Of a stretch of 10,396 nucleotides of DNA, positions 1 through 10,396 are shown piece after piece (within the stretch, counting starts at the first letter, position 1; each line of letters opens with the position of its first letter). The translations under genes were made by a program, and so were the position numbers. The stretch lies in UHGV virus genome UHGV-1616493, one strand, 5' to 3'. Under the pieces are notes generated by a model, which did no database searches, had not been told where the DNA came from, and saw only the letters and a program-made list of their open reading frames with translations. The stretch comes from a virus.

Positions 1-17
1 AAGCAATGACCTGGTGG

Positions 18-182
18 TCCGTGACTTCCCTACGCTGGCATTATCCAGATCAGGTAATACGGGTATTTCTCAGCCTTCACAAAGAAGGGCACCCCGAGTC
101 ATGTACTATAAAATCAAAAGCTTGCGATTAATGCTCCTCATTAATCCCTGATCAGGATAGTAATGCCAGCGGGAAGTCTTGT
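18..182. repeat. Imperfect inverted repeat: arms about 18-53 and 148-182 flanking a roughly 94-bp core
   Basis: Left arm gtgacttccctacgctggcattatccagatcagg and the reverse complement of the right arm (cctgatcaggatagtaatgccagcgggaagtc) share GACTTCCC, GCTGGCATTA and CTGATCAGG blocks with small indels. Aligned by eye. Confidence 0.45.
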
Positions 183-221
183 AAACGGTAAAAGCGGCCC
201 TTTTGGTCTATGTGTGACAGG

Positions 222-251
222 TTGAGTGACACAATGTGTGCCATGTAGAAT
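222..251 (+). promoter_or_regulatory. Candidate sigma70 promoter for the 291..926 gene
   Basis: TTGAGT (222-227), 18-bp spacer, TAGAAT (246-251); lies about 40 bp upstream of the ATG with an AAGAGG Shine-Dalgarno at 283-288. Confidence 0.4.
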
Positions 252-290
252 GCTCTTAAGTCGTCAACTACCGCATTAAAAAAAGAGGTT

Positions 291-926
291 ATGATGGATT
301 TACAAGCATGGGATAACATTATCTCTATCGCTTCGAATGCTGTAACAGCGTTGAGTGTGGTTGGCGGCGTCATCTTCGGAGGGGTTAAACTTCAGGAGAT
401 TGTGAAGACGAGAAAAATGGAGCGGGCAATTGATTCAGCAATCGCTCTTAAAGAAGAAATTGATAGCACCAGAAGCCGTTACAATCGTATGCGCTTTGAC
501 TTAAACCGCATTATGACTTTTCTCGACACACTGGCGAAATCAGGACAAAAAGCCGACGAAGAAAGCTATTATCATATTCAAGAATCCTTGAAAGATATGA
601 CGGAAAATACCTTTCGCATTGGTAGCTCTTTCATCAAGTTAAGTCACTATAATGTTCTGATTAAAAAGGTTTCCTGGGAGCCATTCAACGCCCTTCTTCG
701 ATCTTCTGGTAATACGCAAATAGCCATCTCAAAACTGATGACTCTCATCATGCAGGCTTTGCTTAAAGCACAGATAACACCAGAAGAATTCATGGCAATA
801 CGTAACGCTTATGATGAACATGGCGCAATGATGAAAGATGTTAATCACGCTATCTCTGGATTAGATATCATTAAATTTGACAATCTTTTTGACTTCAGCA
901 AAGTACATAAAAAAAGCCGGGATTAA
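291..926 (+). CDS. Membrane-anchored hypothetical protein (about 210 aa); candidate moron or exclusion/defence gene
   Basis: Intact ORF with tandem ATGs at 291/294 after an AAGAGG SD. One N-terminal hydrophobic helix (IISIASNAVTALSVVGGVIFGGV) then a charged, helical-looking soluble domain. Visibly more AT-rich than the neighbouring phage genes, convergent to them, with its own promoter and terminator. No family recognised. Confidence 0.7.
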   Translation: MMDLQAWDNIISIASNAVTALSVVGGVIFGGVKLQEIVKTRKMERAIDSAIALKEEIDSTRSRYNRMRFDLNRIMTFLDTLAKSGQKADEESYYHIQESLKDMTENTFRIGSSFIKLSHYNVLIKKVSWEPFNALLRSSGNTQIAISKLMTLIMQALLKAQITPEEFMAIRNAYDEHGAMMKDVNHAISGLDIIKFDNLFDFSKVHKKSRD

Positions 927-950
927 CCCGGCTCTCATGTTTTCAGTTTT
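909..950. terminator. Bidirectional Rho-independent terminator shared by convergent genes
   Basis: AAAAAAA, stem AGCCGGG (915-921), loop ATTAA (contains the TAA stop of the plus gene), stem CCCGGCT (927-933), then T-rich CTCATGTTTTCAGTTTT. On the minus strand the stem is followed by TTTTTTT. Confidence 0.65.
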
Positions 951-1147
951 CGTTGTCGCTGTTCGTTGAGGTAGTACCTAATAGCGCTGTCGAATCCATG
1001 CGTATGGATGCGGTCAAGTAGGCTGGAACGACTACACTCAAGCCTGCGTGCTAACGCTGACATGTTGATAATCGCATCATCGCCCTTGCCATCTAGAATC
1101 CACTGCATCAGCGGCATGTTGCCAGTACCGATCAAAGCTAATTTCAT
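935..1147 (-). CDS. Small hypothetical protein (70 aa), last gene of the minus-strand array
   Basis: ATG at 1147 preceded by AAGGAG with a 6-nt spacer; the ORF-track start at 1198 has no such signal. The N-terminus MKLALIGTGNM resembles the start of a dinucleotide-binding protein, followed by a short helix-turn-helix-like stretch, so it may be a gene remnant. Confidence 0.45.
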   Translation of the reverse strand: MKLALIGTGNMPLMQWILDGKGDDAIINMSALARRLECSRSSLLDRIHTHGFDSAIRYYLNEQRQRKLKT

Positions 1148-1179
1148 ATGTATCTCCTTTCCTTTGGCTCGCCTGCAGC

Positions 1180-1196
1180 GGGGGCAATGCGCCCCC
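1180..1196 (-). other. GC-rich hairpin immediately downstream of the major capsid gene
   Basis: GGGGGC-aatgc-GCCCCC, 6-bp GC stem, beginning 14 nt after the capsid stop codon; no U-tract on the minus strand, so more likely an mRNA 3' stabiliser than a terminator. Confidence 0.35.
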
Positions 1197-1209
1197 AAAA
1201 TACGCTGTC

Positions 1210-2226
1210 TTACGCCGCGTCATCCATCGTAATTTTCAAAACGAAGTCTGGACGCATTGGGATCTGAATTTGTGATAGCTCGCTGACCACCTCATAATTC
1301 ATGAACTTATCACGCAGAACGTAATGGTAAGACGGATAAACCGGACCATTAGCAACGTCAGCATGACGGCTCGCCGGAGTCTGGTAAGTCATATAAGGTG
1401 AAAGGTCGCCTTCAACAACATTGGAGAACGTCGCCAGCATGTAGCCTTCACCATCTGCAATGCCGTATAGCGGATCGTCAACCTGAACTACAGTTACGCG
1501 CCCGATGTTGTATCGATCATATGCGCCCAAAGTGTCAGGGAAAATGATGTCACGGGACGTAGCACCAAACAGAGCCGCCTGATATGCGGTTGGGTTGCCT
1601 TGAATGGCGGTGAAAAGACTCGGACTCGCTAGCAGATAAACCTGCTTGATGCTGGAAGACCAGCCACCCAGATTTTTCTTCAGCAGCGTGACAGCGTTCT
1701 GCATCTCAGTAATAACGTTGGCACTGATGCCAGTTTTCACCACAGCAGACGGCTGGTTAATACCCCAGAAGGTTTGCCAGTTCAGATCAGGACCTTCACG
1801 AAGGTGTGTCGCCTCTACAGTATTGTGAAGCAGGCTCTGCGCCATGGCATATTCAACATCACGGCGGGTTTGCAGGTAGTGCTTCAGGGTATGATTAGCA
1901 ACTACATCTTCAGCGGTCATCTGGCGATTTGTTCCCGGCTGACGTTTCCCCTGCCAATCCTGGCTGGTGATGGTTGAGCTGTAGACATGCAGTGGAGCCT
2001 GAACAGTCACGTTAGCCGCTTTAGGGAAGTTTAGACCGGACATTTCAGAACCATAACGGGCAACAGATTTGGTCACTTCACGCTGCACATCTTCCAGTGT
2101 GTCGAGCGCGATGATTTGCGTATCACTTGGACGGCTGGTAAAGATCCCCAGGCTGGACAGAAGGAACCCCTCGCCGCTTGGCTTCACAAACTGACCGGAA
2201 AGGTTAGTAAAATCACTTAATTTCAT
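1210..2226 (-). CDS. Phage major capsid protein, lambda gpE-like (338 aa)
   Basis: Size matches E-family capsid proteins (about 340 aa). It sits 18 nt downstream of a 120-aa decoration-like gene, as in lambdoid D-E pairs. The C-terminal ...PMRPDFVLKITM resembles the ...PDEFVSVQLA end of lambda gpE. GGAG SD upstream of the ATG at 2226. Homology recalled from memory, not searched. Confidence 0.6.
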   Translation of the reverse strand: MKLSDFTNLSGQFVKPSGEGFLLSSLGIFTSRPSDTQIIALDTLEDVQREVTKSVARYGSEMSGLNFPKAANVTVQAPLHVYSSTITSQDWQGKRQPGTNRQMTAEDVVANHTLKHYLQTRRDVEYAMAQSLLHNTVEATHLREGPDLNWQTFWGINQPSAVVKTGISANVITEMQNAVTLLKKNLGGWSSSIKQVYLLASPSLFTAIQGNPTAYQAALFGATSRDIIFPDTLGAYDRYNIGRVTVVQVDDPLYGIADGEGYMLATFSNVVEGDLSPYMTYQTPASRHADVANGPVYPSYHYVLRDKFMNYEVVSELSQIQIPMRPDFVLKITMDDAA

Positions 2227-2244
2227 ATTGTTATCACTCCTTGA

Positions 2245-2607
2245 TTAGATTGCAGTGTTTGCGTCAGCAATGCGGTTGCCTTGCTTAACAAGGGCAGCGT
2301 AAGCAGCATCTTTTGCAGCAGCCGCTACAACCAGACCAGATGGATTGAACACACAGCCACGGTCTGAAATGACCAGGCTACGGGCATCACCAGCGATTTG
2401 ATTTTGCAGAGCTACAGCACAGTTATCAGCATCGGCTGCAACGTATGCCGCGCCAGTGGTCGGGTTAATCACATCACCACAAGTCACATCAGCAGCCAGA
2501 TCAAAGATCACGGTGCGCTTATGAAAGATCGGGCTATCGGTATAAACCAATACATCCTGTGGGGTTTTGCTTTCATGTTCGAATGCCATATTTTGTTGTA
2601 TCTCCAT
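2245..2607 (-). CDS. Head decoration-like protein (120 aa; possibly 113 aa from the second ATG at 2586)
   Basis: Small Ala/Gly/Val-rich protein directly upstream of the capsid gene and translationally close to it; position and size match lambda gpD-type decoration proteins. No strong SD at the first ATG. Confidence 0.45.
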   Translation of the reverse strand: MEIQQNMAFEHESKTPQDVLVYTDSPIFHKRTVIFDLAADVTCGDVINPTTGAAYVAADADNCAVALQNQIAGDARSLVISDRGCVFNPSGLVVAAAAKDAAYAALVKQGNRIADANTAI

Positions 2608-2621
2608 GCAATTTTTATAAT

Positions 2622-2726
2622 CCGGCGAATATGCCGGGTTGTGTTGAAAAAATACCGTCCATCGGACGGCATTCTTTTATTTGTATTCCCAACAGAAAAA
2701 GAGCCGGAGGCAGGAAAACGCCTGCC
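2622..2726. terminator. Cluster of three hairpins directly upstream of the capsid genes; the middle one is a bidirectional intrinsic terminator
   Basis: CCGGC-gaatat-GCCGG (2622-2637); CCGTCC-atc-GGACGG (2655-2669) flanked by CATTCTTTTATTTG on plus and TATTTTTTC on minus; GGCAGG-aaaacg-CCTGCC (2709-2726) followed on minus by a T-rich run. Confidence 0.45.
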
Positions 2727-2760
2727 CCGGTTGGTAGATCATCGGAGATGATGAAATTCA

Positions 2761-2792
2761 CCCGTTTACGGGTTAGCAACATGCGTTGCTAA
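2761..2792. promoter_or_regulatory. Adjacent palindromes, operator-like
   Basis: CCCG-ttta-CGGG (2761-2772) followed by TTAGCAAC-atgc-GTTGCTAA (2773-2792), perfect 8-bp arms with a 4-nt spacer, in the untranslated leader between the 713-aa gene and the capsid genes. Confidence 0.3.
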
Positions 2793-3250
2793 TAGCTTCA
2801 CGATGGTATTTTCTGATGGAGAGATTTGGAAAGCATGATCGGCGGGTCACGCTTCAGGAATGAGGGAGCACAGCAGCGGGAGACCTCATATCTTCGCTGC
2901 CGCACTCAATGCCAGTTTTCGTCTGGCAAGACGGCCTTCCGAGGATGAAAGGCTTTGGCAAATCTCCGATCCAAGGTCGGAGAAAATCTTTTCTGATACA
3001 GCCAGCGGCAATGGCCTAACCTTACCGTGAGAGGGTGCGAATATTGGCTGTATGAGAAAAGGCGCTCTGGGAAAAGCGCACTTTGATTCCTAAGGAGAAG
3101 GGAAAACATTTGGCTGTTGTAATTCACCTTGTATATTATTTTAACACGAATGATTATCATTTGCAACAACAAAAACAATAACATGGCGAATTCAACGGCC
3201 CTCTCTCGTGTGGGCCAATTTGCTGCGCCATTTTCGACGGAACGATGATT

Positions 3251-5392
3251 TTAGTCTGCAATCCCAAGGATGAGGTTATTCTGCGCGTGGTTGTTCTCCC
3301 TTATCTTGGTATCAACCAGCCCTGCGATCTTATCGTCATGGACAAACACATCCATCTGCTGATTAATGTTCGCTTGCCCGGTAACACTGACAGGAATCGG
3401 CTGTCGCAGCGTCATGCTGTCAATTGTCGGAACCGTAAACGTCGGTTGCTGGGGTGTCAGATAGTTCAGGCTAGGAACATTCAACGCTAGCGCTGGATCG
3501 TTATACGCCGTGCCTGAGCCAATATTGCTCGGTGCTGAACTATCCAGCCACGGGTAAATCTGCTTAAGCGTCTGACCGATGCTACGTGGATCAAAGCCTG
3601 TCTTTTCCTTAATCCAATCGGCAGCACCGTTTGCAGATTCATCTACCACGCTCGTATACACCGCATCCGGCAATGTCGCGCCTTTCTTAAGTTCTTCTCC
3701 GACTCGACCAGAGAAGGAGAGAATGTTGGTGGTTAGCTCACCAAGGGCAACGCCGAGGGCATCGGAAATTGGGATCAGTCCAGTCATCTTCTGACGTAGA
3801 GTTTCAGTATTGGCAGCGTACTGCCCCAGGCCTTCAACAAACGAGGCTGAGAAATGATCTGCAAGGCTGGTTTGCACTCGGTTGTACTCAGCACCTAACG
3901 CCGCCAGTTTATCGAGGTTGGCTTGCTGCGCATCAGATAGGGTCCATCCTTCAGAAGAGAGTTGATGCATACGCTGGATAAGTCCCTGCCCCTCATCATT
4001 GAACACTTCGAGGAAGACCGAACCATCATTCACAGCCTCAGCCAGGTGCCGGGTCTGGTTGTCCGTCCATTTGAAAGTTTTCTGCAACTGTTTCAGGTAA
4101 GTGATGAAGGTCGGAAAATCCAGCTTTTGCAGTTCTCCGATCACCTTCTGTGCTACCTTCTGGTTACCGTTGGTGGAGGTCAGCACATTGTTGATGATAT
4201 CTGCGAACTCGCCACCGCCGCTGAAATTCACCTGTCCAGTTTTCTTGTTACGTTTGAAAGAGCCGGTGTTTAACAATTCCCCGGCCTTTTCGGTTGTGTC
4301 CTTGTTGAGGTCAGCCAGCTTGTCAGCACTCAGTGAGTAACCAACACGGCTCATCGAGAGATCCTGAAGTGCAGCGAACTCAAGGTTGCTGATCCCGTAC
4401 TGCTGGAGTTTTTTCACATCGCGAGAGCGCTCAAGGCTTCCCTGGAGGGTCTGACCGACACGAGAAACGCCCATACTACCCACTAACGACGCACCACCAA
4501 TAACACCAGCAGCTGCAAGACCAGCTCTACCACCACGGCTTTCTGTGCGTACACGACCAGCACGAACACCTGCGGCTTTCTGCTCACGGGTCATACGCTG
4601 TTGCAGACGAGCCTGCTTGCGTAATTCGGTGGTGATACGAGCCATTTCGAAGCGGGTCTCTTCAACCGTATAGCGCTCTTCTTTCTGGGCTTTAAGTGCC
4701 TCTTTTGCTGCACTGATGGCTTTGTACCGGGTTGCAACGTCAGCGCCGTTCACGTTTGCCAGAGTCAGAGCGCTACGGCGCAAACTGTTGTAATAAGTCA
4801 CCTCGCGCTTAAGGCCTGCCTCTTTCTCACGCTGACGCTTCTCCTCCAAGGCCATCGCCTTTTTGGTGGCTGCGATGTCAGCAGCAACAGCGCCGTGACC
4901 ACGGTTCATCGCTGCATTTTGACGTGCCACCAGAGATGGATCGGAGTGAACTCCAGGCATGTTGGGATTGTAGGTCATTGCACGGGAGCGACTCGCCTGT
5001 CTCACCTTGTCAGATATCGCTGCTAGTCTGGCATTCTGCCGTGCGGCCTGTTCCTGCTGGGATAACTGACGCGCCTGTAATGAGGTCATTTTATTAGCGT
5101 GGGAGACTGCATCCCGTTCCATTTTGGCTTGTATCTGAGCTTGTTTCTGTTGCTGTTTTGACAATTGTTCAGCCTGGCGTAGCTTCGCTGTCTGGGCTTT
5201 CGCTGCGGCTAGTGCTGCTTTGCCTTCACTCTGGACGGTCCGCTTCTGGGCCTTCTCAAGCGCTTTAGCTGGTTTCTCATGAGCAGCCTTAAGCGAGATA
5301 ATCTTCTTTTTGGCTTTTTGATATGAGGCATCGTCTGTGATCCACGAGATTTCATTAACGGTGCTGGTAACAATCTTATTTGTGCCAGACAT
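3251..5392 (-). CDS. Large coiled-coil protein with a Gly-rich hydrophobic segment (713 aa); tail tape-measure-like, alternatively scaffold or ejection protein
   Basis: The N-terminal roughly 250 aa are rich in A/K/Q/E/R as in coiled coils. The central GLAAAGVIGGASLVGSMGVS segment resembles the Gly-rich hydrophobic patches of tape-measure proteins. The ORF track starts at GTG 5395, but ATG 5392 overlaps the upstream stop as TGATG (translational coupling), with GGGGG upstream. Confidence 0.45.
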   Translation of the reverse strand: MSGTNKIVTSTVNEISWITDDASYQKAKKKIISLKAAHEKPAKALEKAQKRTVQSEGKAALAAAKAQTAKLRQAEQLSKQQQKQAQIQAKMERDAVSHANKMTSLQARQLSQQEQAARQNARLAAISDKVRQASRSRAMTYNPNMPGVHSDPSLVARQNAAMNRGHGAVAADIAATKKAMALEEKRQREKEAGLKREVTYYNSLRRSALTLANVNGADVATRYKAISAAKEALKAQKEERYTVEETRFEMARITTELRKQARLQQRMTREQKAAGVRAGRVRTESRGGRAGLAAAGVIGGASLVGSMGVSRVGQTLQGSLERSRDVKKLQQYGISNLEFAALQDLSMSRVGYSLSADKLADLNKDTTEKAGELLNTGSFKRNKKTGQVNFSGGGEFADIINNVLTSTNGNQKVAQKVIGELQKLDFPTFITYLKQLQKTFKWTDNQTRHLAEAVNDGSVFLEVFNDEGQGLIQRMHQLSSEGWTLSDAQQANLDKLAALGAEYNRVQTSLADHFSASFVEGLGQYAANTETLRQKMTGLIPISDALGVALGELTTNILSFSGRVGEELKKGATLPDAVYTSVVDESANGAADWIKEKTGFDPRSIGQTLKQIYPWLDSSAPSNIGSGTAYNDPALALNVPSLNYLTPQQPTFTVPTIDSMTLRQPIPVSVTGQANINQQMDVFVHDDKIAGLVDTKIRENNHAQNNLILGIAD

Positions 5393-5820
5393 CACACCCC
5401 CTGATTGATATCGTAACCCAGACGCTCAAGCGCGGCGCGTTGTTCAGGTGTTAGCTCATCAAGACTTGCCTTCATCATGAGACTTACCGGACGCAGATTA
5501 GCGCTATAACCTTGGGCTTGGTGGCACAGAGCGATCCCTTTTTCCTTGATGGTTTTACCACTTTTTGGGGCTGGCTCGCTGGCTGTTGCAGTCGAAGCGG
5601 ACAGGTAACTCTGCACCGCCTCCGCCAATGCTTCTTCAGCGGATTTGTTCAGATCTTCCGGTTCGTCTGTTCCTGCGGTCATTGCTTCCCGGATACTGGC
5701 GCGGATTGCTTCAATGTTATTCATATTGTTATGTTTCCTGTAGAGGTCCAGGCCGTCACGAAGCCATTGGAGAACAGCTACCGCTAACGGCAGAAAGGAT
5801 AAATATTCAAATAGGGTCAA
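5392..5820 (-). CDS. Hypothetical protein (142 aa from TTG 5820; alternative ATG at 5724 gives 110 aa)
   Basis: ORF in the same reading frame as the upstream 173-aa ORF, separated from it only by the TAA at 5839-5841. No ATG start at the 5' end; an internal ATG at 5724 has AGGAAA 9 nt upstream. N-terminal hydrophobic stretch, acidic Ala-rich middle. Confidence 0.45.
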   Translation of the reverse strand: MTLFEYLSFLPLAVAVLQWLRDGLDLYRKHNNMNNIEAIRASIREAMTAGTDEPEDLNKSAEEALAEAVQSYLSASTATASEPAPKSGKTIKEKGIALCHQAQGYSANLRPVSLMMKASLDELTPEQRAALERLGYDINQGV

Positions 5821-5838
5821 GTTTCCCCGGCTGGGGTA

Positions 5839-6360
5839 TTAATAATGCAGTCGTGGTGATCGGCGTTGGGGCGCTGCCTGCTTGCGTGAAATAGTCTTCC
5901 GGTACTCAATGAACAACGGATCATCACTAACAGGCATTCGAGATGCCATTTCTTTTTCAGTGATTCCTTCACGCTTGAGCAGCGTTACCACAGTGAATAG
6001 AGGCAGTTGAAGGTCAGCACAGATTTTTGCCAGCATTGCGCCGGATTCGTAGTACATTCGGGCCATTCGCTTAGTAGCGTACTGACTGGTATTACTTATC
6101 TTGCGACAGCGAGGATTCCACGAGTTATCGTAAAGGCCTTTTACCAGGTCATACGGCAAGCGTAGGAGCAGCGCCGTTTTGCCTGGGGTGTAACCGTGAA
6201 CGAGCATTTTTTTAGCAGTCTCGATCAACGAGGTATCACGAGAGCGGGCCTTGTAAAAACGGGACAAATCAGGGGCGTCAGCACCGGATTTGTTTACCTC
6301 TGGTAAAGTGCTTCGCACCGTAAGGGTTTCAGCCGTCAGGCTGTTGGCAACATCACACAA
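5839..6360 (-). CDS. Hypothetical protein (173 aa), TTG start; possible DNA-binding or small-terminase-like
   Basis: TTG at 6360 preceded by GGAGG with a 5-nt spacer, 15 nt after the upstream stop. Basic protein with a helix-turn-helix-like stretch (LPLFTVVTLLKREGITEKE). Function not recognised. Confidence 0.5.
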   Translation of the reverse strand: MCDVANSLTAETLTVRSTLPEVNKSGADAPDLSRFYKARSRDTSLIETAKKMLVHGYTPGKTALLLRLPYDLVKGLYDNSWNPRCRKISNTSQYATKRMARMYYESGAMLAKICADLQLPLFTVVTLLKREGITEKEMASRMPVSDDPLFIEYRKTISRKQAAPQRRSPRLHY

Positions 6361-6374
6361 TTATTCCTCCAGTA

Positions 6375-7121
6375 TCAGAAAGGGATCGAGTCATCATAAT
6401 CAAGCGGCAGCTCATCTGCTGGGGCGTTAACCTGTTGTTCTACTGACTCCGGTGCGGGTACATGATAATTTTGAATAAACAGATTCATGCTGTCCTCATC
6501 GCTGCTGATACCATGAGAGAGACAAAACGCTTTTGCTTCTTCATCCAGTCCCCAATTGCGCCATCGCCTCAGCTTGGTGCCTAATTGTTCATCGGTATAC
6601 CTATCAGAAGCGTTCACCGCATCATCATTGGCAGGTACATCAGCATCGACAGGAATATCCACAACAGGTAGGCCGTCTGGTTTTCCAGCAACAGGCGCGG
6701 CAGGTTCCACCACGAAAGATTCCACATCACGTTTCTGCTCATTCTTACCGCTCTCCTCGGTTTCCACTTTTCTATTACTCACCTGCGTGGAATTATGATC
6801 GTCAAGAAAAACCATCAACGATGGATCGAGTTCGACCGGAGAAATTTTGTGTGTTCTCCCCTGCTCTTCCTCAAAAGTGATCATTCCCGCTTCACGAAGC
6901 TTGTTCCTGAAATTACGAACGGCTTCGGGCTTGCAGCCGCAACGTTTACCAATCATGCCAACAGACTCGTAATAAGTTCTGCCTGTTTTGTCATAGCTGT
7001 AAACCAGAGATAGCAAAATTTTCATGTTGCCATTAATGGTCAGGCCGTTGTACTCGGTAAGGTCGAGAATGCTGTATTCAAGTTTTACAAAATCCTTACT
7101 GTCCCGGTTCTGTTTGCTCAT
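6375..7121 (-). CDS. Winged-helix-like DNA-binding protein with acidic C-terminal domain (248 aa); candidate replication initiator or transcriptional activator
   Basis: ATG at 7121 with GGAG and a 6-nt spacer. The N-terminal roughly 100 aa look like an HTH/winged-helix fold (GKRCGCKPEAVRNFRNKLREAGMITFEE); the C-terminal half is acidic and ends ...DELPLDYDDSIPF. Overlaps the upstream 67-aa gene by 26 nt. Confidence 0.55.
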   Translation of the reverse strand: MSKQNRDSKDFVKLEYSILDLTEYNGLTINGNMKILLSLVYSYDKTGRTYYESVGMIGKRCGCKPEAVRNFRNKLREAGMITFEEEQGRTHKISPVELDPSLMVFLDDHNSTQVSNRKVETEESGKNEQKRDVESFVVEPAAPVAGKPDGLPVVDIPVDADVPANDDAVNASDRYTDEQLGTKLRRWRNWGLDEEAKAFCLSHGISSDEDSMNLFIQNYHVPAPESVEQQVNAPADELPLDYDDSIPF

Positions 7122-7299
7122 TCTGTTCTCCGTAAAGTGTCGCCTTGCTGGCTAATGCTGGTTTGATGTCTGGTGTGTTGTCGAAAATGTTCGCGGCAGT
7201 CTCCAAGATTTCATTACAGAGCCGTGCCAGGGGCTTGTCCTGCCTTTTGGCCTCAGCTAGTAGAGCCTGATAAACGTGCTGTTGAAATTTGATGTTCAT
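7096..7299 (-). CDS. Small ribbon-helix-helix-like putative transcriptional regulator (67 aa)
   Basis: ATG at 7299 preceded by GAGGAGG. The N-terminal pattern (beta-strand-like NIKFQQHVYQ, then two short helices LLAEAKRQ / LARLCNEILETAANIF) fits Arc/MetJ/CopG-type RHH proteins. Confidence 0.5.
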   Translation of the reverse strand: MNIKFQQHVYQALLAEAKRQDKPLARLCNEILETAANIFDNTPDIKPALASKATLYGEQNEQTEPGQ

Positions 7300-7386
7300 T
7301 CAAGTTGTCCTCCTCGTTTTAGGTACAAAAGACCTCCCGCCAGTGGTCGCCCAAAGGCGAACCGGCTCAGGTTTTGTTCAGTGTTG

Positions 7387-7833
7387 TTAGACTGCGGTTG
7401 CGGTCGGGAAGTCACCCGCACAGGTGTAACCGTAGGATTCCAGACGTTCCACACCATCAGTGGCGATCAAGAGCAAGATCACCTGTTCTGGTGTCAGGTC
7501 CAGATTCAGTTTTTCTCTATATAGCTCGCGGTAGCCCTGTAACACAGGATTCAGGATTTGCGTTAAGGAATTACCCTCAGCATATTTATTGCTCAGAGGC
7601 TTCAGCACCGTCTTAACCACTCGTGCCTGCTTCGCTTTCTTCCGCGCCTGCTTCAGGATTTGCAGGCAGACGGCGATCTGAGGAAGTCGAGCATGTACAG
7701 CGTCTGCCCCGCCGTTTCTACTAATGAAGGCCCACAAAGCTGATTTGGTGTATTTGCCGTTCAGGATGAGATCAGCGATCTGCTCGCCTGTCATAGTGGT
7801 CAGGTCGAGACGTTGGGATTTTGGTTTATTCAT
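7387..7833 (-). CDS. Hypothetical protein (148 aa), first gene of the minus-strand array
   Basis: ATG at 7833 with GGAG and a 6-nt spacer; preceded by a long AT-rich untranslated region. Predicted helical and basic; no family recognised. Confidence 0.55.
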   Translation of the reverse strand: MNKPKSQRLDLTTMTGEQIADLILNGKYTKSALWAFISRNGGADAVHARLPQIAVCLQILKQARKKAKQARVVKTVLKPLSNKYAEGNSLTQILNPVLQGYRELYREKLNLDLTPEQVILLLIATDGVERLESYGYTCAGDFPTATAV

Positions 7834-8049
7834 TGGGTTCTCCGTTCTGTTAAAAGAATTATTCGCGGAGGTTCTATTTGTAACCCATTTTGTATTGCCG
7901 TGAGGTTGACAAGGAATGTCGTGATGACGGCAGAATTATTCGAGGATTCGTAGGTAAATCATTACCCTACTAAAATCTATTGTATCAGATTTGTTTGTAA
8001 ATAGCAATCATTATCATGTAGCATTTTATAATGCATAATAATCACCATA

Positions 8050-8078
8050 ACATTACAAGTTTAAAAAATCTTTGTCAA
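8050..8078 (-). promoter_or_regulatory. Candidate sigma70 promoter driving the minus-strand array
   Basis: On the minus strand: TTGACA (8078-8073), 17-bp A/T-rich spacer, TAATGT (8055-8050). It lies in an AT-rich zone (about 7960-8080) with several imperfect palindromes, roughly 210 nt upstream of the first gene. Confidence 0.35.
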
Positions 8079-8286
8079 TAGTGCTAGATCGTTCTGTGAC
8101 GCGTTCTGCGGGGACTCGTCGTTATAGCAGTACCATCGTGTTACCCACACCATTTAAACGCCGTAGAGAGGCGCTGAGGAAGTCAGTTAGACAACCCGCG
8201 CCGCCCCGGAGTGAACCGGACAGATGCAAAGCAGTCCTCTCCGCCGTGCTCCGATCCACATATGGCGAACAAGTTCGCAGCTTCCA

Positions 8287-8470
8287 CACAGAGTGAGAGC
8301 GTAGCTCTCTGGCGTAGCCTGTCGGGTTACCCGAGTCACAGAGCGTAGCGATGTGTTAACGAGGGTTAGAAGGTCACGAGATGGCGCGGCTGTTTCACGT
8401 CAGCAAAGGTGAGCTTCTTACCACAAACATATCTGAAGTGGCTGACCAGCCATTGCAGAGCGGAGCGATG
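8287..8470. repeat. Dispersed GAGCGTAGC-type motif copies in a GC-rich non-coding block
   Basis: CAGAGCGTAGCGATG (8339-8353) and CAGAGCGGAGCGATG (8456-8470) match 14/15. GAGAGC-gta-GCTCTC forms a perfect hairpin at 8295-8309, and GGCGTAGC occurs at 8311-8318. Confidence 0.45.
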
Positions 8471-8581
8471 CAGAAGCATCACTATTAAAACTAACAGAAT
8501 GACCAACCGTCATTCCGTGCTCTCGACCTGGAGGTACTTTTCTTATCAGTTCTTTTATGGAGATTGTTATTTATTATTATT

Positions 8582-8672
8582 GTGCTCGAAAATCGACTAC
8601 CCCCTACTCGAAAATCGTGCAGGTAGGTGCTCGAAAATCGAGGGGGTGGGTACACGAAAATCGTGCAGGTAT
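8582..8672. repeat. Iteron-like array: four copies of CTCGAAAATCG phased at 22-23 bp, next to an AT-rich tract
   Basis: Copies at 8585-8595, 8607-8617, 8630-8640 and 8653-8663 (the last is CACGAAAATCG). Alternate units carry TCGTGCAGGTA (8615-8625, 8661-8671); the others carry inverted ACCCCCT (8599-8605) and AGGGGGT (8641-8647). AT-rich tract at 8541-8583. Confidence 0.6.
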
Positions 8673-9964
8673 CACCGGGTGAGAATTTTCCAAGTCATCC
8701 AAGCGACCAACGCACCGATGAAAACTTCTGGTTTGATATGTCCGCGTCATGCTTCAATGGCACAATCGACGGCAACACCTGAGGCGGTCCAGGCACCTGA
8801 TCCGCTCCGAGAATTGATCATCTCCCTCCCCCGCTTTCATCTGAAAATACCGACCATTCTCCGCGCTGGCTGAAGATTGGCAACCCTATACTAGTTTTCT
8901 GTGAAAATTTGGTGGATGATCTTTATCATTGGCTATCCTGCGAACAAAGTAGATTAAATACACCTCAAATAGCCTATAATCCGTAGTTAATCATGCTAAA
9001 GTGGTCACTAAACGTACAAATCACAAGTTTGTACCTATGGGCGTTATGGTGTGGTGCATGCAGCGAAGCCAGTAATGGCGCGGCCTAGGCGAATCCGCCA
9101 ATTGAATGGGTGCTAAACACAACCCACTTTCTGAACCATCTTTTTACAAAAAATAAAAAAGACACATTAAAACTAAAACAGATGTCCTCTGGTGGTTCCT
9201 GTATCGCGCTGTGGGATGTCGTGGATTATCGGTACGTCAGTTTACATCTGGGGGGATAACGCACTGTAGCGCTTCTGGTGGAGCGTAGAAGGGATTGGTG
9301 GGTTGGCTGTTTACATTGTTTTGGGAAATGGTACGAAACAGTGGCGGTCAGGCTCGTGAATATCACCAGGTGATGGCAGACCTTCAGCCCGTTGTGGTAA
9401 CGTCGGTGTAGTGGCTTTGTGTCTGCTGGTAAACAGAAAAAAGTGCTTTTATGGCGTTTGACACACTGGCAGCCTCAAAGGTCTGAAACCTGAAATTGTG
9501 TGGTGACCAGGCAAACTCATCCAAAATCCTTGAACAAGAGAACTCACCTCGAATCCTCCTGAATGCTTTCCTTCTGTTGGTGAAATCGCTGTTGTGTACC
9601 CAGCTTCGCGTCAACGTTCCGAAAAGTAATACCTGACCATTCCAGTCAAGTACTTATAAGAACCATTATGTTAAATAGACCAGAAAACGAACAGTAGAAT
9701 GCCCTATTGCGGCAAGTTTTCCCTGCTGTGATGCTCTACGGGATGAAGTGGTGAAATACGTTACTGGGCCTGTCGGCTCTGCGATATTTCAGCAAGAAGA
9801 TAAGAAATTATTGAGGGATCGTCTGTCACGTCAGGCACCTGGCCCAGAGAGCCGTAAGATATTTTCAGCAAGAGCATGTAAGCTGGATCGTCAAATAGCA
9901 GGGACATCCATGAGGTGGGGTAGATGAGTTGCCGGGAATTTTACCCGGCAGACCGTATGACAGA

Positions 9965-10387
9965 TTAGTTAAAGGTGCAGTTTCCGCCAGACGGTGCACC
10001 GATGAAAAACTGCATCTTTTCGCAAGTCACGGTGATCTTCTGGCCCTTTTCCAATTTCGACGCTTTCGCCTTTTCTGAATCAGACATACTCAGACTGACT
10101 GGCATGAAGCGATTACCGCTTTCAAGTTTAAGAACTACATCATCCGTGAAATTTTTTGTTATGTCCTGTACAGTTCCGGTTACTTCCACCTTACGACCAC
10201 CAATTTTGTCATCGGCTGCAACCTCGTTAGCTTTATAAAGTTCAGCCAGAGCTAGTGCTTTTGTACGGTAAATTGCATCATCAGAAGCTGGCACTTTGGG
10301 TTTACTATCGGCAACCTGCGATTGTTCCGGATTAGTCATACTAGGGAAGGTGCGAACAAGTTCCTGATATGAGATCATCATATTCAT
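9965..10387 (-). CDS. OB-fold (tRNA_anti-like type) domain protein; N-terminus may lie beyond the window edge
   Basis: The motif pattern ...LYKANEVAADDKIGGRKVEVTGTVQDI...KLEKGQKITVTCEK... matches my memory of the tRNA_anti-like OB-fold family. The frame stays open from the ATG at 10387 to the window edge at 10396, so the real start may be upstream. Confidence 0.5.
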   Translation of the reverse strand: MNMMISYQELVRTFPSMTNPEQSQVADSKPKVPASDDAIYRTKALALAELYKANEVAADDKIGGRKVEVTGTVQDITKNFTDDVVLKLESGNRFMPVSLSMSDSEKAKASKLEKGQKITVTCEKMQFFIGAPSGGNCTFN

Positions 10388-10396
10388 CCGGAGCGC

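Follow-up and report, generated by a model that had tools for sequence, protein, structure and literature searches.

A 13.4-kb integrative island of Escherichia coli with its own HK97-fold capsid gene: a candidate phage satellite with distant homologues in rV5-like phages

Background

The cf-PICIs of Enterobacteria are integrative elements that encode an HK97-fold capsid protein, make small capsids solely for themselves and take tails from temperate helpers, and they carry a complete head and packaging module comprising portal, prohead protease, head-tail connectors and small terminase. The PLE of Vibrio cholerae, which is tied to the virulent myophage ICP1 and has no capsid gene, reshapes the ICP1 coat protein with an external scaffold, TcaP (PMC10945586). 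PLE uses a serine recombinase and a RepA_N protein. Classical PICIs and SaPI-like elements are characterised by int, an AlpA or Stl regulator, pri-rep and genes that redirect the capsid or packaging, and they have no capsid gene; P4-like satellites are characterised by psu, delta, sid, an alpha primase-helicase, epsilon and a P2-type cos. P4 and the SaPIs remodel the helper capsid protein through satellite scaffold-type proteins (Sid, CpmAB) acting with helper assembly factors; the helper internal scaffold is thought to be necessary for portal incorporation (discussion in PMC10945586). Small HK97 elements with an integrase and RepA, and without portal or tail, have also been proposed from metagenomes (preprint 10.1101/2025.06.18.659913); these "mini" entities are 5-11.6 kb long, have encapsulin-like shell proteins and lack both decoration and scaffold-motif genes; in all but one case they lack a tape-measure gene as well.

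The original prediction on the present locus noted capsid and decoration genes downstream of three regulators and a tape-measure-like gene, without terminase, portal or protease, and proposed either a satellite that supplies its own shell and borrows the rest from a helper or a rearranged prophage remnant. The comparative analysis below supports the former reading and disfavors the latter, with helper dependence and packaging remaining inferences.

Results and discussion

Boundaries and gene content of the island

The window, by which we mean the whole stretch of 10,396 nt analysed, makes up about three quarters of a 13,369-bp (13.4-kb) island in an E. coli chromosome. The island ends are 71-nt direct repeats lying 13,369 bp apart within the TPP riboswitch of thiM: the thiM-proximal copy occupies window positions 30-100, and at the far end, which carries a 460-aa tyrosine integrase, a second riboswitch copy (Rfam RF00059, 53.6 bits) adjoins the integrase 13.4 kb away. 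Beyond the integrase and the att repeats the flanks hold ordinary chromosomal genes (thiMD, rcnR). The features of the window are as follows.

10..106, minus strand: TPP riboswitch of thiM (Rfam RF00059, 73.6 bits)
291..926, plus strand: 211-aa accessory gene, function unknown; its product has a hydrophobic segment at the N-terminus and no significant family match
935..1147, minus strand: conserved 70-aa protein of unknown function, directly downstream of the capsid gene; HTH-like by eye
1210..2226, minus strand: major capsid protein, 338 aa, HK97 fold, gpE/phiTE-like clade (PHROG 29, Foldseek, family HMM)
2245..2589, minus strand: probable gpD-like head decoration protein, 114 aa from a conserved ATG (Pfam HDPD and gene position)
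2645..2728, minus strand: two consecutive intrinsic terminators (hairpins 2728-2707 and 2669-2655)
2808..2965, minus strand: structured leader RNA, about 158 nt (covariance model R1, covariation)
3138..3166, minus strand: predicted sigma-70 promoter TTGCAA-N17-(TG)TAAAAT, its spacer containing a palindrome, upstream of the leader and capsid operon
3251..5395, minus strand: tape-measure-protein homologue, 713/714 aa (PHROG tape-measure families, FBKp34 gp168, family HMM)
5392..5724, minus strand: putative mini-scaffold/adaptor protein, 110 aa from M33 (the longest ORF, 5392-5820, gives 142 aa)
5839..6360, minus strand: family-specific tandem-HTH protein, 173 aa, all-helical, presumed DNA-binding regulator
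6375..7121, minus strand: replication-initiator-like protein, 248 aa, winged HTH, DnaD/O-like (Pfam HTH_36, PHROG)
7096..7833, minus strand: two conserved early genes of unknown function, 67 aa and 148 aa, at the head of the long minus-strand operon
7834..9964, unstranded: 2.1-kb stretch without a conserved ORF that includes the putative origin, with patches conserved among divergent islands
8560..8680, unstranded: putative replication origin with four iterons ahead of an AT-rich tract
9965..10396, minus strand: accessory gene for an OB-fold Sie-like (superinfection-exclusion-like) protein, 3' part only (PHROG 8545)

The predicted gene positions held, with all of the predicted genes on the minus strand, as did the lack of packaging genes: no terminase, portal or protease occurs among the window ORFs or among the annotated genes of the complete island and 19 kb on each side. 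Searches of the island with Pfam, PHROGs and NCBIfam, together with tblastn using Vequintavirus TerL, portal and protease queries, also recovered no TerL, portal or protease, and every window ORF of at least 160 aa is accounted for, leaving none to be a long-ORF packaging gene. Neck, tube, sheath and baseplate genes are likewise missing from the island. Essential virion genes are also missing in about 45 related loci, and TerL and portal queries found no homologue (0) among these. The island yielded neither an identifiable small terminase nor a factor for packaging specificity, and no DNA similarity to a candidate helper was found that would mark a shared pac or cos site. Two criteria for a phage satellite, namely integration and excision functions of its own with defined ends (here the tyrosine integrase and the 71-nt repeats) and the absence of genes essential for autonomous virion production, are met. 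Terminase, portal and protease genes just outside the window would have refuted the satellite idea, as would failure of the 338-aa protein to match a capsid fold; the flanks yielded only the integrase, att repeats, thiMD and rcnR, and the 338-aa protein has a capsid fold, so neither check refutes it.

A family of islands and episomes

The approximately 45 related loci, spread over at least 10 enterobacterial genera (Escherichia, Klebsiella, Enterobacter, Cronobacter, Pantoea, Kluyvera and others), share the same core, gene order and intact ORFs. They use different integrases and three att sites, namely the TPP riboswitch, tRNA-Gly and tRNA-Thr, with 23- and 34-nt direct repeats at the two tRNA sites, and the islands at the three sites measure 13,369, 13,248 and 13,577 bp, a near-constant 13.2-13.6 kb. 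Their sister group comprises circular episomes of 13.2-13.7 kb, of which a head-to-tail trimer also exists, and some episomal relatives have no integrase. Gene content and cargo vary among islands while length stays at 13.2-13.7 kb, and this near-constancy is more in line with a limit set by capsid size than with a locus for defence alone. Only 12 of 5,426 complete E. coli genomes carry the capsid type seen in the window, which makes it rare in that species. Among the cargo, the 211-aa gene is present in only some islands; its PADLOC match to a Type II methyltransferase is weak (E 0.0046) and was not taken as meaningful. The Sie-like gene is truncated by the window end, and the full 268-aa protein from locus L001 matches PHROG 8545 at E 6e-22. 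No description of this island family was found in the literature searched, and on balance we favor viewing it as a previously undescribed kind of phage satellite.

Capsid and decoration proteins

The 338-aa protein belongs to the gpE-like major capsid proteins of the HK97 fold. It matches the PHROG 29 "major head protein" family at E 2.5e-9 and Pfam Phage_cap_E weakly; against PF03864 (gpE-like) it scores 17.2 bits, with a cut-off of 22.9, and its close relatives carry precomputed PF03864 matches. The fold itself is predicted, from an AlphaFold model of moderate confidence (pLDDT 62, pTM 0.64), whose best Foldseek match in the PDB is the phiTE capsid protein (9cul, E 1e-13, TM 0.64), followed by the ICP1 coat, Bas63, Sf14 and lambda gpE, over a range of E 1e-13 to 1e-6. 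An HMM of the capsid proteins of the island family matches the capsid protein of phage AlexBoehm at E 1e-11. The dN/dS of the gene is 0.06-0.15, indicating strong purifying selection and hence a functional gene. An encapsulin was considered and rejected, since encapsulins appear in the fold search only from rank 38; the neighboring decoration, scaffold-motif and tape-measure genes, all of phage type, also contradict such a reading.

The adjacent gene, of which a longer form spans 2245-2607, is likely to encode a head decoration protein, an assignment resting on weak scores and gene position. It matches Pfam HDPD (lambda gpD) at E 6e-4, under the curated cut-off, and its family HMM matches the AlexBoehm decoration protein only weakly (E 0.11); its position upstream of the capsid gene is the same as in phages KP2025, FBKp34 and AlexBoehm. 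The 70-aa gene follows the capsid gene in essentially all loci, and its product has no Pfam, PHROG or NCBIfam match.

Tape measure and scaffold-motif protein

The predicted tape-measure-like gene encodes a true tape-measure homologue. This 714-aa protein has no Pfam match, and its residues 308-565 are 31% identical to gp168 of Klebsiella phage FBKp34, which occupies the tape-measure position after the sheath, tube and chaperone genes. The family HMM matches the annotated tape measure of the Vequintavirus AlexBoehm at E 1e-13, and the proteins of other islands align to the latter over residues 4-773 of 778.

The neighboring 110/142-aa gene had been read as a regulator, and this is rejected in favor of a scaffold-derived protein. 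In the 110-aa form, 38 residues copy the N-terminus of the rV5-type (Vequintavirus) head scaffold, with 76% identity to residues 7-41 of the AlexBoehm scaffold, and the protein matches PHROG 2970 at E 2.7e-16 (HMM E 9.5e-19). Matches came from 322 phage records, all within scaffold genes, of rV5-, Mydo-, GAP31-, CR3/phiTE- and ICP1-type phages. Conservation of the motif far exceeds that of the capsid protein (19-24% identity), and the motif is closest to that of phages infecting the same host genus. At one position shared by two Aeromonas sister elements, a prohead-protease homologue stands in one where the motif protein stands in the other; one episomal relative encodes a homologue, at 43% identity, of the product of a Vequintavirus neck-region gene, and adaptor, neck and baseplate homologues are present in some relatives.

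Taken together, the structural genes of the island are distant homologues of head and tail genes of the Vequintavirinae (rV5-like phages). We propose an rV5-like helper lineage on the basis of the capsid, tape-measure and scaffold-motif matches, the decoration match being weak. Given that the capsid and tape-measure proteins are only 19-31% identical to those of any sequenced phage, the true helper may belong to an unsampled lineage.

Early genes and putative replication origin

The "three regulators" of the original prediction held only in part, as these genes prove to encode a Rep/DnaD-like initiator (248 aa), the tandem-HTH protein (173 aa) and small unknowns. The initiator-like protein matches Pfam HTH_36 (E 4.6e-4) and PHROG 186/391/428, and its relatives in loci L003 and L004 are annotated DUF6945. 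All 42 homologues of the 173-aa protein lie within this island family; its AlphaFold model has a pLDDT of 69 and gave no match under E 0.2 in a PDB fold search. A role as a DNA-binding regulator is possible but presumed, its function being unknown. The 67-aa and 148-aa early proteins have no family matches.

The putative origin consists of four iterons with a CGATTTTCGAG core at 23-nt spacing, followed by the AT-rich tract, and conserved hairpins with varying stems lie just downstream at 8395-8530. A further satellite criterion, a replication module of its own, is met by the Rep/DnaD-like protein, iterons, AT tract and circular episomal relatives, with replication itself inferred from sequence alone.

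Control of the capsid operon

The sigma-70 promoter, conserved in 32 of 37 loci, is inferred to drive the leader RNA and the capsid operon. The leader comprises a closing stem, a CUCCUC-loop hairpin, an H-type pseudoknot, a long hairpin and one optional hairpin, and it has a 3' tail, AUCUCUCCAUCAG, complementary to AUGGAGAU, the decoration-gene ribosome-binding site. Covariance model R1 finds a single copy per island in 33 loci. In the alignment 94.6% of cells are paired, compared with 79% for shuffled and about 40% for slid controls; both sides change in 31 of 46 pairs, and none of 500 shuffles reaches the observed score. The pseudoknot stem covaries although it was left out of the covariance model. 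The leader belongs to no Rfam family, and a whole-island Rfam search at E <= 0.1 gave only the two TPP riboswitch copies. The terminator pair sits between the leader and the decoration-gene ribosome-binding site, and its hairpins are kept across loci with compensatory changes.

By analogy, the capsid operon may be gated, with antitermination as a possible mode of control. The lambdoid PR'-qut-tR' region, which works with Q, likewise has a strong constitutive-type promoter, a leader and intrinsic terminators before the structural genes, and in HK022 put a structured cis-acting RNA governs read-through. The island leader has no sequence or Rfam similarity to either, no Q-like protein was identified in the island, and the RNA is of about 158 nt, multi-helix, pseudoknotted and of its own kind.

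A proposed life cycle and its rivals

We consider it the best-supported reading, with moderate confidence, that the island is a 13.4-kb integrative satellite that assembles a small shell of its own and relies on a virulent helper for portal, protease, terminase and tail; induction, packaging and helper use are inferred from sequence alone. For induction and packaging by a helper, the remaining satellite criterion, the evidence is indirect and consists of homology and motif sharing with Vequintavirinae structural proteins. When a large virulent rV5/Vequintavirinae-type myophage, or one closely related, infects the cell, the island would excise and replicate from its iteron origin, and the capsid operon, otherwise kept off by the structured leader RNA and the two terminators, would then be expressed. 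The island capsid protein would form a small shell of about T=3-4, sized for ~13 kb, whereas the helper would probably have a T=13 shell like that of its relative phiTE. By displaying the N-terminal motif of the helper scaffold, the 110-aa protein may dock the helper portal and/or protease into the satellite procapsid, which the helper terminase would fill and helper necks and tails would complete; any tape measure encoded by the satellite would act in place of that of the helper or in competition with it.

Certain observations stand against this satellite reading. The tape measure is accessory, being missing from loci L004, L005, L009 and L015, and why a satellite should carry one is unexplained. 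Induction, packaging and particles lack experimental support, neither pac/cos similarity nor a small terminase was found, the capsid and tape-measure proteins are distant from those of every sequenced phage, the capsid model is of moderate confidence, the decoration assignment is weakly supported, and the capsid type is rare in E. coli.

An anti-phage defence island without transfer appears unlikely. Under that view the island is not packaged, and its shell, scaffold-motif and tape-measure proteins (the shell set being capsid and decoration proteins) would serve as decoys, poisoning the assembly of an infecting rV5-like phage by sequestering its portal, protease or tail parts. Mimicry of the scaffold motif and a helper-like tape measure would suit such interference, the Sie-like gene and variable cargo are in keeping with it, and so is the failure to find a packaging signal or small terminase. 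However, it leaves aside the integrase, the Rep-like initiator with iterons, the episomal relatives and the length held at 13.2-13.7 kb; a full, strongly conserved shell set (dN/dS ~0.08) exceeds what decoys need, and PADLOC models gave no relevant match. Known satellites can moreover combine interference with transfer, such that the two readings are not mutually exclusive.

There is still less to recommend a decaying prophage, in which deletions left a few structural genes beside an integrase. The structural module is indeed incomplete, the integrase of locus L003 is pseudogenised, and the order of the capsid operon and early genes is unlike the canonical phage order. Against this, the same gene set and order recur in the ~45 loci across genera and at different att sites with intact ORFs, the capsid gene is under purifying selection, circular episomal relatives exist, a dedicated conserved regulatory RNA lies upstream of the capsid operon, and the relatives of the island genes belong to virulent, non-lysogenising phages of 135-150 kb. 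Also improbable is a self-sufficient portal-less particle or compartment (encapsulin-, gene-transfer-agent-like or plasmid-encapsidating) that needs no helper, for which the metagenomic HK97 elements and the integrase-less episomes could be cited. The best fold matches of the capsid protein are nevertheless those of tailed phages, with the first encapsulin at rank 38; the tape measure, the scaffold motif and the adaptor, neck and baseplate homologues of relatives imply a tail and portal from elsewhere, and there is no evident cargo enzyme or targeting peptide.

Comparison with known systems

As a candidate satellite, the island is like the cf-PICIs in being integrative, of similar size and equipped with its own HK97-fold capsid protein, and small capsids completed with helper tails would be a further likeness. 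It differs in its scaffold-motif protein and often a tape measure, and in structural genes that point to virulent rV5-like myophages rather than temperate helpers. Membership of the cf-PICIs is not met, given that portal, prohead protease, connectors and small terminase were not found and no unassigned ORF is long enough. The portal-less mini entities (bioRxiv 10.1101/2025.06.18.659913) likewise have an integrase and a Rep beside a gene for an HK97-fold shell, and likewise lack portal and tail genes; the island family is distinguished from them by its 13.2-13.7 kb length and gpE/phiTE-like capsid proteins.

P4 and the SaPIs offer a parallel in their scaffold-type proteins, although these serve to remodel the helper capsid protein, whereas the scaffold-derived protein of the island would link a satellite capsid protein to helper portal or protease. 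Scans of 10 window proteins (Pfam and PHROGs) and of 5 island genes outside the window (PHROGs only) found no homologues of psu, sid, delta, alpha, epsilon, cpm or ppi. The island is thus not a P4-like satellite, with no psu, delta, sid, alpha primase-helicase or epsilon match in the proteins scanned, nor a classical PICI/SaPI, with no AlpA, primase or Ppi/Rpp/Cpm matches and a capsid protein of its own.

PLE is likewise tied to a virulent myophage of the same capsid/scaffold structural clade: among the best fold matches of the island capsid protein is the ICP1 coat, and the ICP1 scaffold shares the island motif. Each element has a Rep of its own with iterons, and each would enclose the satellite genome in small capsids. 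PLE, however, is confined to Vibrio and has no capsid gene, whereas the island has its own capsid and decoration proteins, a tyrosine integrase and an enterobacterial host; it does not qualify as a PLE and is PLE-like in some respects only.

Gene content and genomic context

The minus strand carries every substantial gene of the window bar one, and the features can be listed as follows.

Features of the window (nucleotide coordinates, strand, description)
7834-9964: 2.1-kb stretch, upstream of the 148-aa gene, in which no ORF is conserved
7833-7096, minus: 148-aa and 67-aa proteins of unknown function, heading the minus-strand gene series
7121-6375, minus: 248-aa Rep/DnaD-like winged-HTH protein (Pfam HTH_36; PHROG 186/391/428)
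6360-5839, minus: 173-aa protein with family-restricted homologues
5724 or 5820 to 5392, minus: 110-aa or 142-aa scaffold-motif protein, matching the Vequintavirus scaffold
5395-3251, minus: 714-aa tape-measure relative
Between the 714-aa and 114-aa genes: 640-nt gap containing promoter, leader RNA and terminators
3166-3138, minus: sigma-70 promoter TTGCAA-N17-(TG)TAAAAT, kept in 32 of 37 loci
2728-2707 and 2669-2655, minus: two intrinsic terminators, each with a T-run, followed by a ribosome-binding site
2589-2245, minus: 114-aa decoration-type protein
2226-1210, minus: 338-aa capsid protein
1147-935, minus: 70-aa protein
Window end, beyond the 2.1-kb stretch: OB-fold gene, 3' part only

The original prediction had noted capsid and decoration genes without terminase, portal or protease, together with a tape-measure-like gene, and this observation is confirmed: none of these three functions was found in the window by the ORF list, Pfam or PHROGs, and no unassigned window ORF is long enough to encode a portal or large terminase. 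An NCBIfam scan of 10 window proteins matched none of them, and the window contains no tRNA genes. The AlphaFold model of the 173-aa protein is helical with a tandem-HTH arrangement; its homologues are confined to the island family, and a fold search against the PDB gave no match below E 0.2.

Over positions 1-10344 the window matches two E. coli chromosomes, AREA_C483 and TC24, with 100% identity. The AREA_C483 chromosome shows the whole element, 13,369 bp inserted between thiM and rcnR, its ends formed by 71-nt direct repeats inside two copies of the thiM TPP riboswitch, past both of which lie ordinary chromosomal genes. A 460-aa tyrosine integrase is encoded at the far island end, outside the window, and the remaining part of the island encodes a Sie-like OB-fold protein (PHROG 8545, E 6e-22) besides small genes of unknown function. 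Inspection of the flanks, as the original prediction had proposed, thus recovered an integrase and att sites, and no packaging genes. Over the whole island Rfam reports two TPP riboswitches and nothing else. The insertion lies within the riboswitch aptamer of the thiM leader, with 71 nt duplicated (window 10-106; 19010-19106 and 32379-32475 in L001, the locus that includes the island genes beyond the window end). The thiM-proximal copy scores 73.6 bits and the distal copy 53.6 bits, the latter just short of the Rfam cut-off. To find an att site inside a riboswitch aptamer is unusual.

Identity to AREA_C483 and TC24 breaks off 52 bases before the window end (10345-10396), which gives the Sie-like OB-fold gene of the window a different 5' part (ORF start MNMMISYQELVRTFPS...). 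Accessory cargo is found at both island ends (28965-29771 and 29898-30107 in L001; window 291-926), namely the Sie-like OB-fold protein, which has a signal peptide, a conserved secreted protein of 69 aa (PHROG 4641), and a 211-aa protein anchored in the membrane; GNAT, DUF4145, resolvase or YecR genes occupy these places in other islands. The only PADLOC match, a Type II methyltransferase model against the 211-aa accessory gene, was weak (E 0.0046) and was dismissed as not meaningful.

Identity of the capsid, decoration and tape-measure proteins

The 338-aa protein is a capsid protein, as shown by its match to PHROG 29 (E 2.5e-9) and by the fold matches of its AlphaFold model (pLDDT 62, pTM 0.64), all of whose top PDB hits are phage capsid proteins. 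The best of these is the phiTE capsid (E 1e-13, TM 0.64), followed by the ICP1 coat, Bas63, Sf14 and lambda gpE, with the first encapsulin appearing only at rank 38. Comparison of the capsid gene with ten relatives gave dN/dS values of 0.06-0.15. The 114-aa protein matches lambda gpD weakly (E 6e-4, under the Pfam cut-off), and its gene occupies exactly the position of the decoration gene in phages KP2025, FBKp34 and AlexBoehm.

The centre of the 714-aa protein shows 31% identity to FBKp34 gp168, the product of the gene that follows the sheath, tube and chaperone genes. The family profile recovers the annotated tape measure of AlexBoehm (Bas56, a Vequintavirus) with E 1e-13, and the equivalent gene of other islands aligns with residues 4-773 of the 778 in that protein. 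This homology establishes the 714-aa protein as a genuine tape-measure relative. The gene is accessory, being missing from four of the related loci (L004, L005, L009 and L015). PDB sequence searches with the decoration, scaffold-motif and tape-measure proteins were uninformative.

Kinship with rV5-like phages and the scaffold motif

By BLAST the capsid protein reaches at most about 24% identity among 50,697 phage records. Searches of the complete AlexBoehm genome with family profiles recovered the capsid (E 1e-11) and the head scaffold (E 9.5e-19), and weakly the decoration protein (E 0.11). Residues 90-127 of the scaffold-motif protein (142-aa numbering) share 76% identity with residues 7-41 of the AlexBoehm scaffold, which is 325 aa long; there is also a second stretch with weak resemblance to the last 35 residues of that scaffold. 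Matches to the motif came from 322 phage records; every one lies in a scaffold gene, and the phages measure roughly 120-150 kb, with identities of 76% in E. coli rV5-like phages, 70% in the Cronobacter GAP31-type, 54% in the Klebsiella/Proteus Mydo-type, 46% in the Pectobacterium CR3/phiTE-type and about 60% over 23 residues in ICP1. BLASTP against the KP2025 and FBKp34 scaffolds gave no match, the link being seen only with Vequintavirinae-type scaffolds. A comparison of island DNA with the complete AlexBoehm genome, in which a shared pac/cos site or recent transfer was sought, yielded nothing above chance. That the motif is shared without DNA-level similarity implies that it has been kept by selection on the protein and not acquired by recent transfer.

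The 32 codons upstream of M33 (window 5725-5820) are conserved, yet lie in another frame in three related loci (L027, L030 and L033). The protein therefore probably starts at M33 and is 110 aa long, with the upstream conservation being at the DNA level.

Two Aeromonas sister elements provide a comparison: one has the motif protein and no protease, and the other has a prohead-protease homologue (31% identity to AlexBoehm) and no motif protein. The swapped genes are mutually exclusive and occupy the same position (9291-9641 in the element L008 versus 7131-7589 in L024). Both elements also encode a head-tail adaptor homologue, annotated as a "tail capping" protein. The episomal E. coli relatives encode a protein that shares 43% identity with the product of a neck-region gene from a Vequintavirus, and one has a baseplate protein. 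Hence, in the loci examined, branches of the superfamily hold different subsets of rV5-type morphogenesis genes, with portal and terminase in none. That the helper lineage is rV5-like is an inference from homology alone.

A structured leader RNA upstream of the capsid operon

Downstream of the sigma-70 promoter, the leader, 430-680 nt in length, contains blocks conserved across loci. A first pass with MAFFT and RNAalifold gave only 10 pairs, and the structure became clear after single-sequence folds and realignment to a covariance model, built from window 2808-2965 (minus strand, about 158 nt). In 33 loci this model recovers a single copy per island, and it recovers none in the helper-type phage or the Aeromonas elements; Rfam contains no match. 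The RNA comprises a closing stem, a hairpin with a CUCCUC loop, an H-type pseudoknot, a long hairpin and an optional fifth helix. In the alignment 94.6% of cells pair, versus 79% in shuffles and about 40% with slid partners; both sides have changed in 31 of 46 pairs, and none of 500 shuffles reached the observed scores. Fitting the alignment to the covariance model biases it towards pairing. Even so, 88% pairing is seen in a pseudoknot stem of four pairs that the model did not include, two of which show AU:13/GC:12 and CG:20/UA:6. The conserved 3' tail of the leader (AUCUCUCCAUCAG) is complementary to the ribosome-binding region of the decoration gene (AUGGAGAU).

We regard the leader as a new and well-supported class of structured RNA tied to late-gene control. 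We read it as a cis-acting leader that holds the shell genes off until a signal allows read-through and/or translation, although this mechanism is inferred; the releasing signal, likewise by inference, would presumably be helper infection.

A short double-hairpin module (GATTAGCAAC...GTTGCTAACCCGTAAACGGGTG; window about 2740-2790, minus strand) also occurs in four other leaders (L002, L032 and the Pseudocitrobacter loci L011 and L012), at positions that vary between islands as if it were a small mobile insert. The promoter spacer contains a palindrome (AATGATAATCATT; window 3146-3164, minus strand), of which a compensated variant (AATGGTTACCATT) is seen in other islands. It agrees with a Fur box at 14 of 19 consensus positions, but 22% of shuffled windows score as high; we infer that it is more likely the operator of an unknown repressor.

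The non-coding stretch and replication

Positions 8560-8680 contain an AT-rich tract preceded by four iterons, which share a CGATTTTCGAG core and have 23-nt spacing; replication would presumably start there upon binding of the Rep-like protein. Possible occupants of the 2.1-kb stretch as a whole are an origin, a small RNA or a packaging site. Hairpins whose stems vary are conserved within it at 8395-8530, as is a patch at about 9150-9330 that finishes with a terminator-like T-run; the episomal relatives show a gap of 2.2 kb in the corresponding position. Hidden genes were considered and rejected: ORFs in this stretch are unconserved and non-protein-like, and unrelated genes are inserted there in other islands.

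The island family, its mobility and the prophage alternative

Related loci were drawn from complete E. coli genomes, species-representative genomes, Logan and ENA assemblies, IMG/VR and metagenomes. They share a core order that begins with an opposite-strand gene for a small secreted protein, about 2 kb of non-coding sequence, and the 148-aa, 67-aa, Rep, 173-aa and scaffold-motif genes, and continues with the optional tape measure, a leader of 0.45-0.7 kb, and the decoration, capsid and 70-aa genes. The tape-measure protein has 869 homologues in Escherichia, Enterobacter, Klebsiella and Cronobacter; the window's capsid type is a rarity in E. coli, present in 12 of 5,426 complete genomes. Integrases differ between islands, as do the att sites, which include the TPP riboswitch, tRNA-Gly (23-nt repeats) and tRNA-Thr (34-nt repeats); despite this, island lengths stay at 13,369, 13,248 and 13,577 bp. 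Five E. coli "plasmids" of 13.2-13.7 kb encode diverged capsid, decoration, tape-measure, 173-aa-like and 148-aa-like genes and have the 2.2-kb non-coding stretch, with no integrase.

These episomal relatives include L053 (NZ_CP035869.1) and L054 (NZ_CP043822.1), which also have neck-gene homologues. Besides the five, the p3RM10740 record holds three head-to-tail copies of a unit of about 13.5 kb, 99.5-99.7% identical to one another; strain RM10740 also has an integrated island of the window's type. Pseudocitrobacter vendiensis CPO20170097T has two different family islands (L011 and L012) on separate contigs, with differing tape-measure and Rep variants. Short Logan contigs were considered as possible circles and rejected: only one has a terminal repeat (25 nt), which is more likely an att core.

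The original prediction had left two interpretations, a satellite that supplies its own shell or a rearranged prophage remnant. The latter would accommodate the missing packaging genes. The constant core, the differing integrases and att sites, the near-constant length, the low dN/dS and the episomal forms together argue against a decaying prophage. The element is thus likely to be an autonomous replicon under size constraint, a judgement resting on comparative evidence. The satellite interpretation is likewise supported by comparative evidence only, with the helper lineage known only by homology.

A proposed mechanism

Gene content and homologies are shown; the mechanistic steps that follow are inferred. 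A satellite with its own capsid protein must still nucleate its shell on a portal, mature it, fill it and gain a tail. In P4 and SaPIs the internal scaffold of the helper is thought to be necessary for portal incorporation (PMC10945586, discussion). We therefore propose that the 110-aa protein is an adaptor, whose helper-like motif would dock the helper protease and/or portal into a shell of island capsid protein; protease recruitment is favoured because protease and motif protein swap in Aeromonas. If capsid volume is simply scaled down from the related phage phiTE, whose T=13 head holds 142 kb, a 13.4-kb genome calls for a shell of T about 3-4, which would be too small to admit the helper genome. 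The terminase, neck and tail needed to finish the particle would come from the helper. The island tape measure may act instead of the helper's own or in competition with it.

A bolder reading can be offered as a single proposal, tentatively, since we consider it slightly more apt to fail than to hold as a whole. It posits an unrecognised family of enterobacterial satellites of about 13.5 kb, both integrated and episomal, parasitising virulent rV5-like, jumbo-ish myophages. The satellite would provide the capsid and decoration shell and sometimes the tape measure, would use a short imitation of the N-terminus of the helper scaffold to capture the portal and/or protease of the helper, and would silence its capsid operon by means of the new pseudoknotted leader RNA class and tandem terminators. 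Were this true, it would be the first satellite known for the widespread rV5-like coliphages that are therapeutic candidates; these phages are common in therapy collections, and island carriage could affect both phage-therapy efficacy and gene transfer. The 38-residue motif, written IALCHxAQGYSANxRPVSLxMK, would then also provide a concrete handle on portal and protease recruitment into procapsids in a phage group that includes ICP1 and phiTE.

Relationship to known satellites

Full-text literature searches covering satellites with capsid, tape measure, Vequintavirus and DUF6945 retrieved no description of this island family. Although satellite-like in how it would work, the island fails the membership tests for cf-PICIs, classical PICIs, P4-like elements and PLEs, and is unlike the portal-less mini HK97 elements (preprint 10.1101/2025.06.18.659913), which are smaller, encapsulin-like entities. 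In likely helper type the PLE is closest, its helper ICP1 being a virulent myophage whose capsid and scaffold fall in the same clade. In logic the closest are the cf-PICIs, which likewise supply their own shell, whereas the island is without their portal, protease, connectors and small terminase. If the satellite reading is true, the family fills the gap between the capsid-less satellites (PICI, PLE and P4) and the whole-head cf-PICIs.
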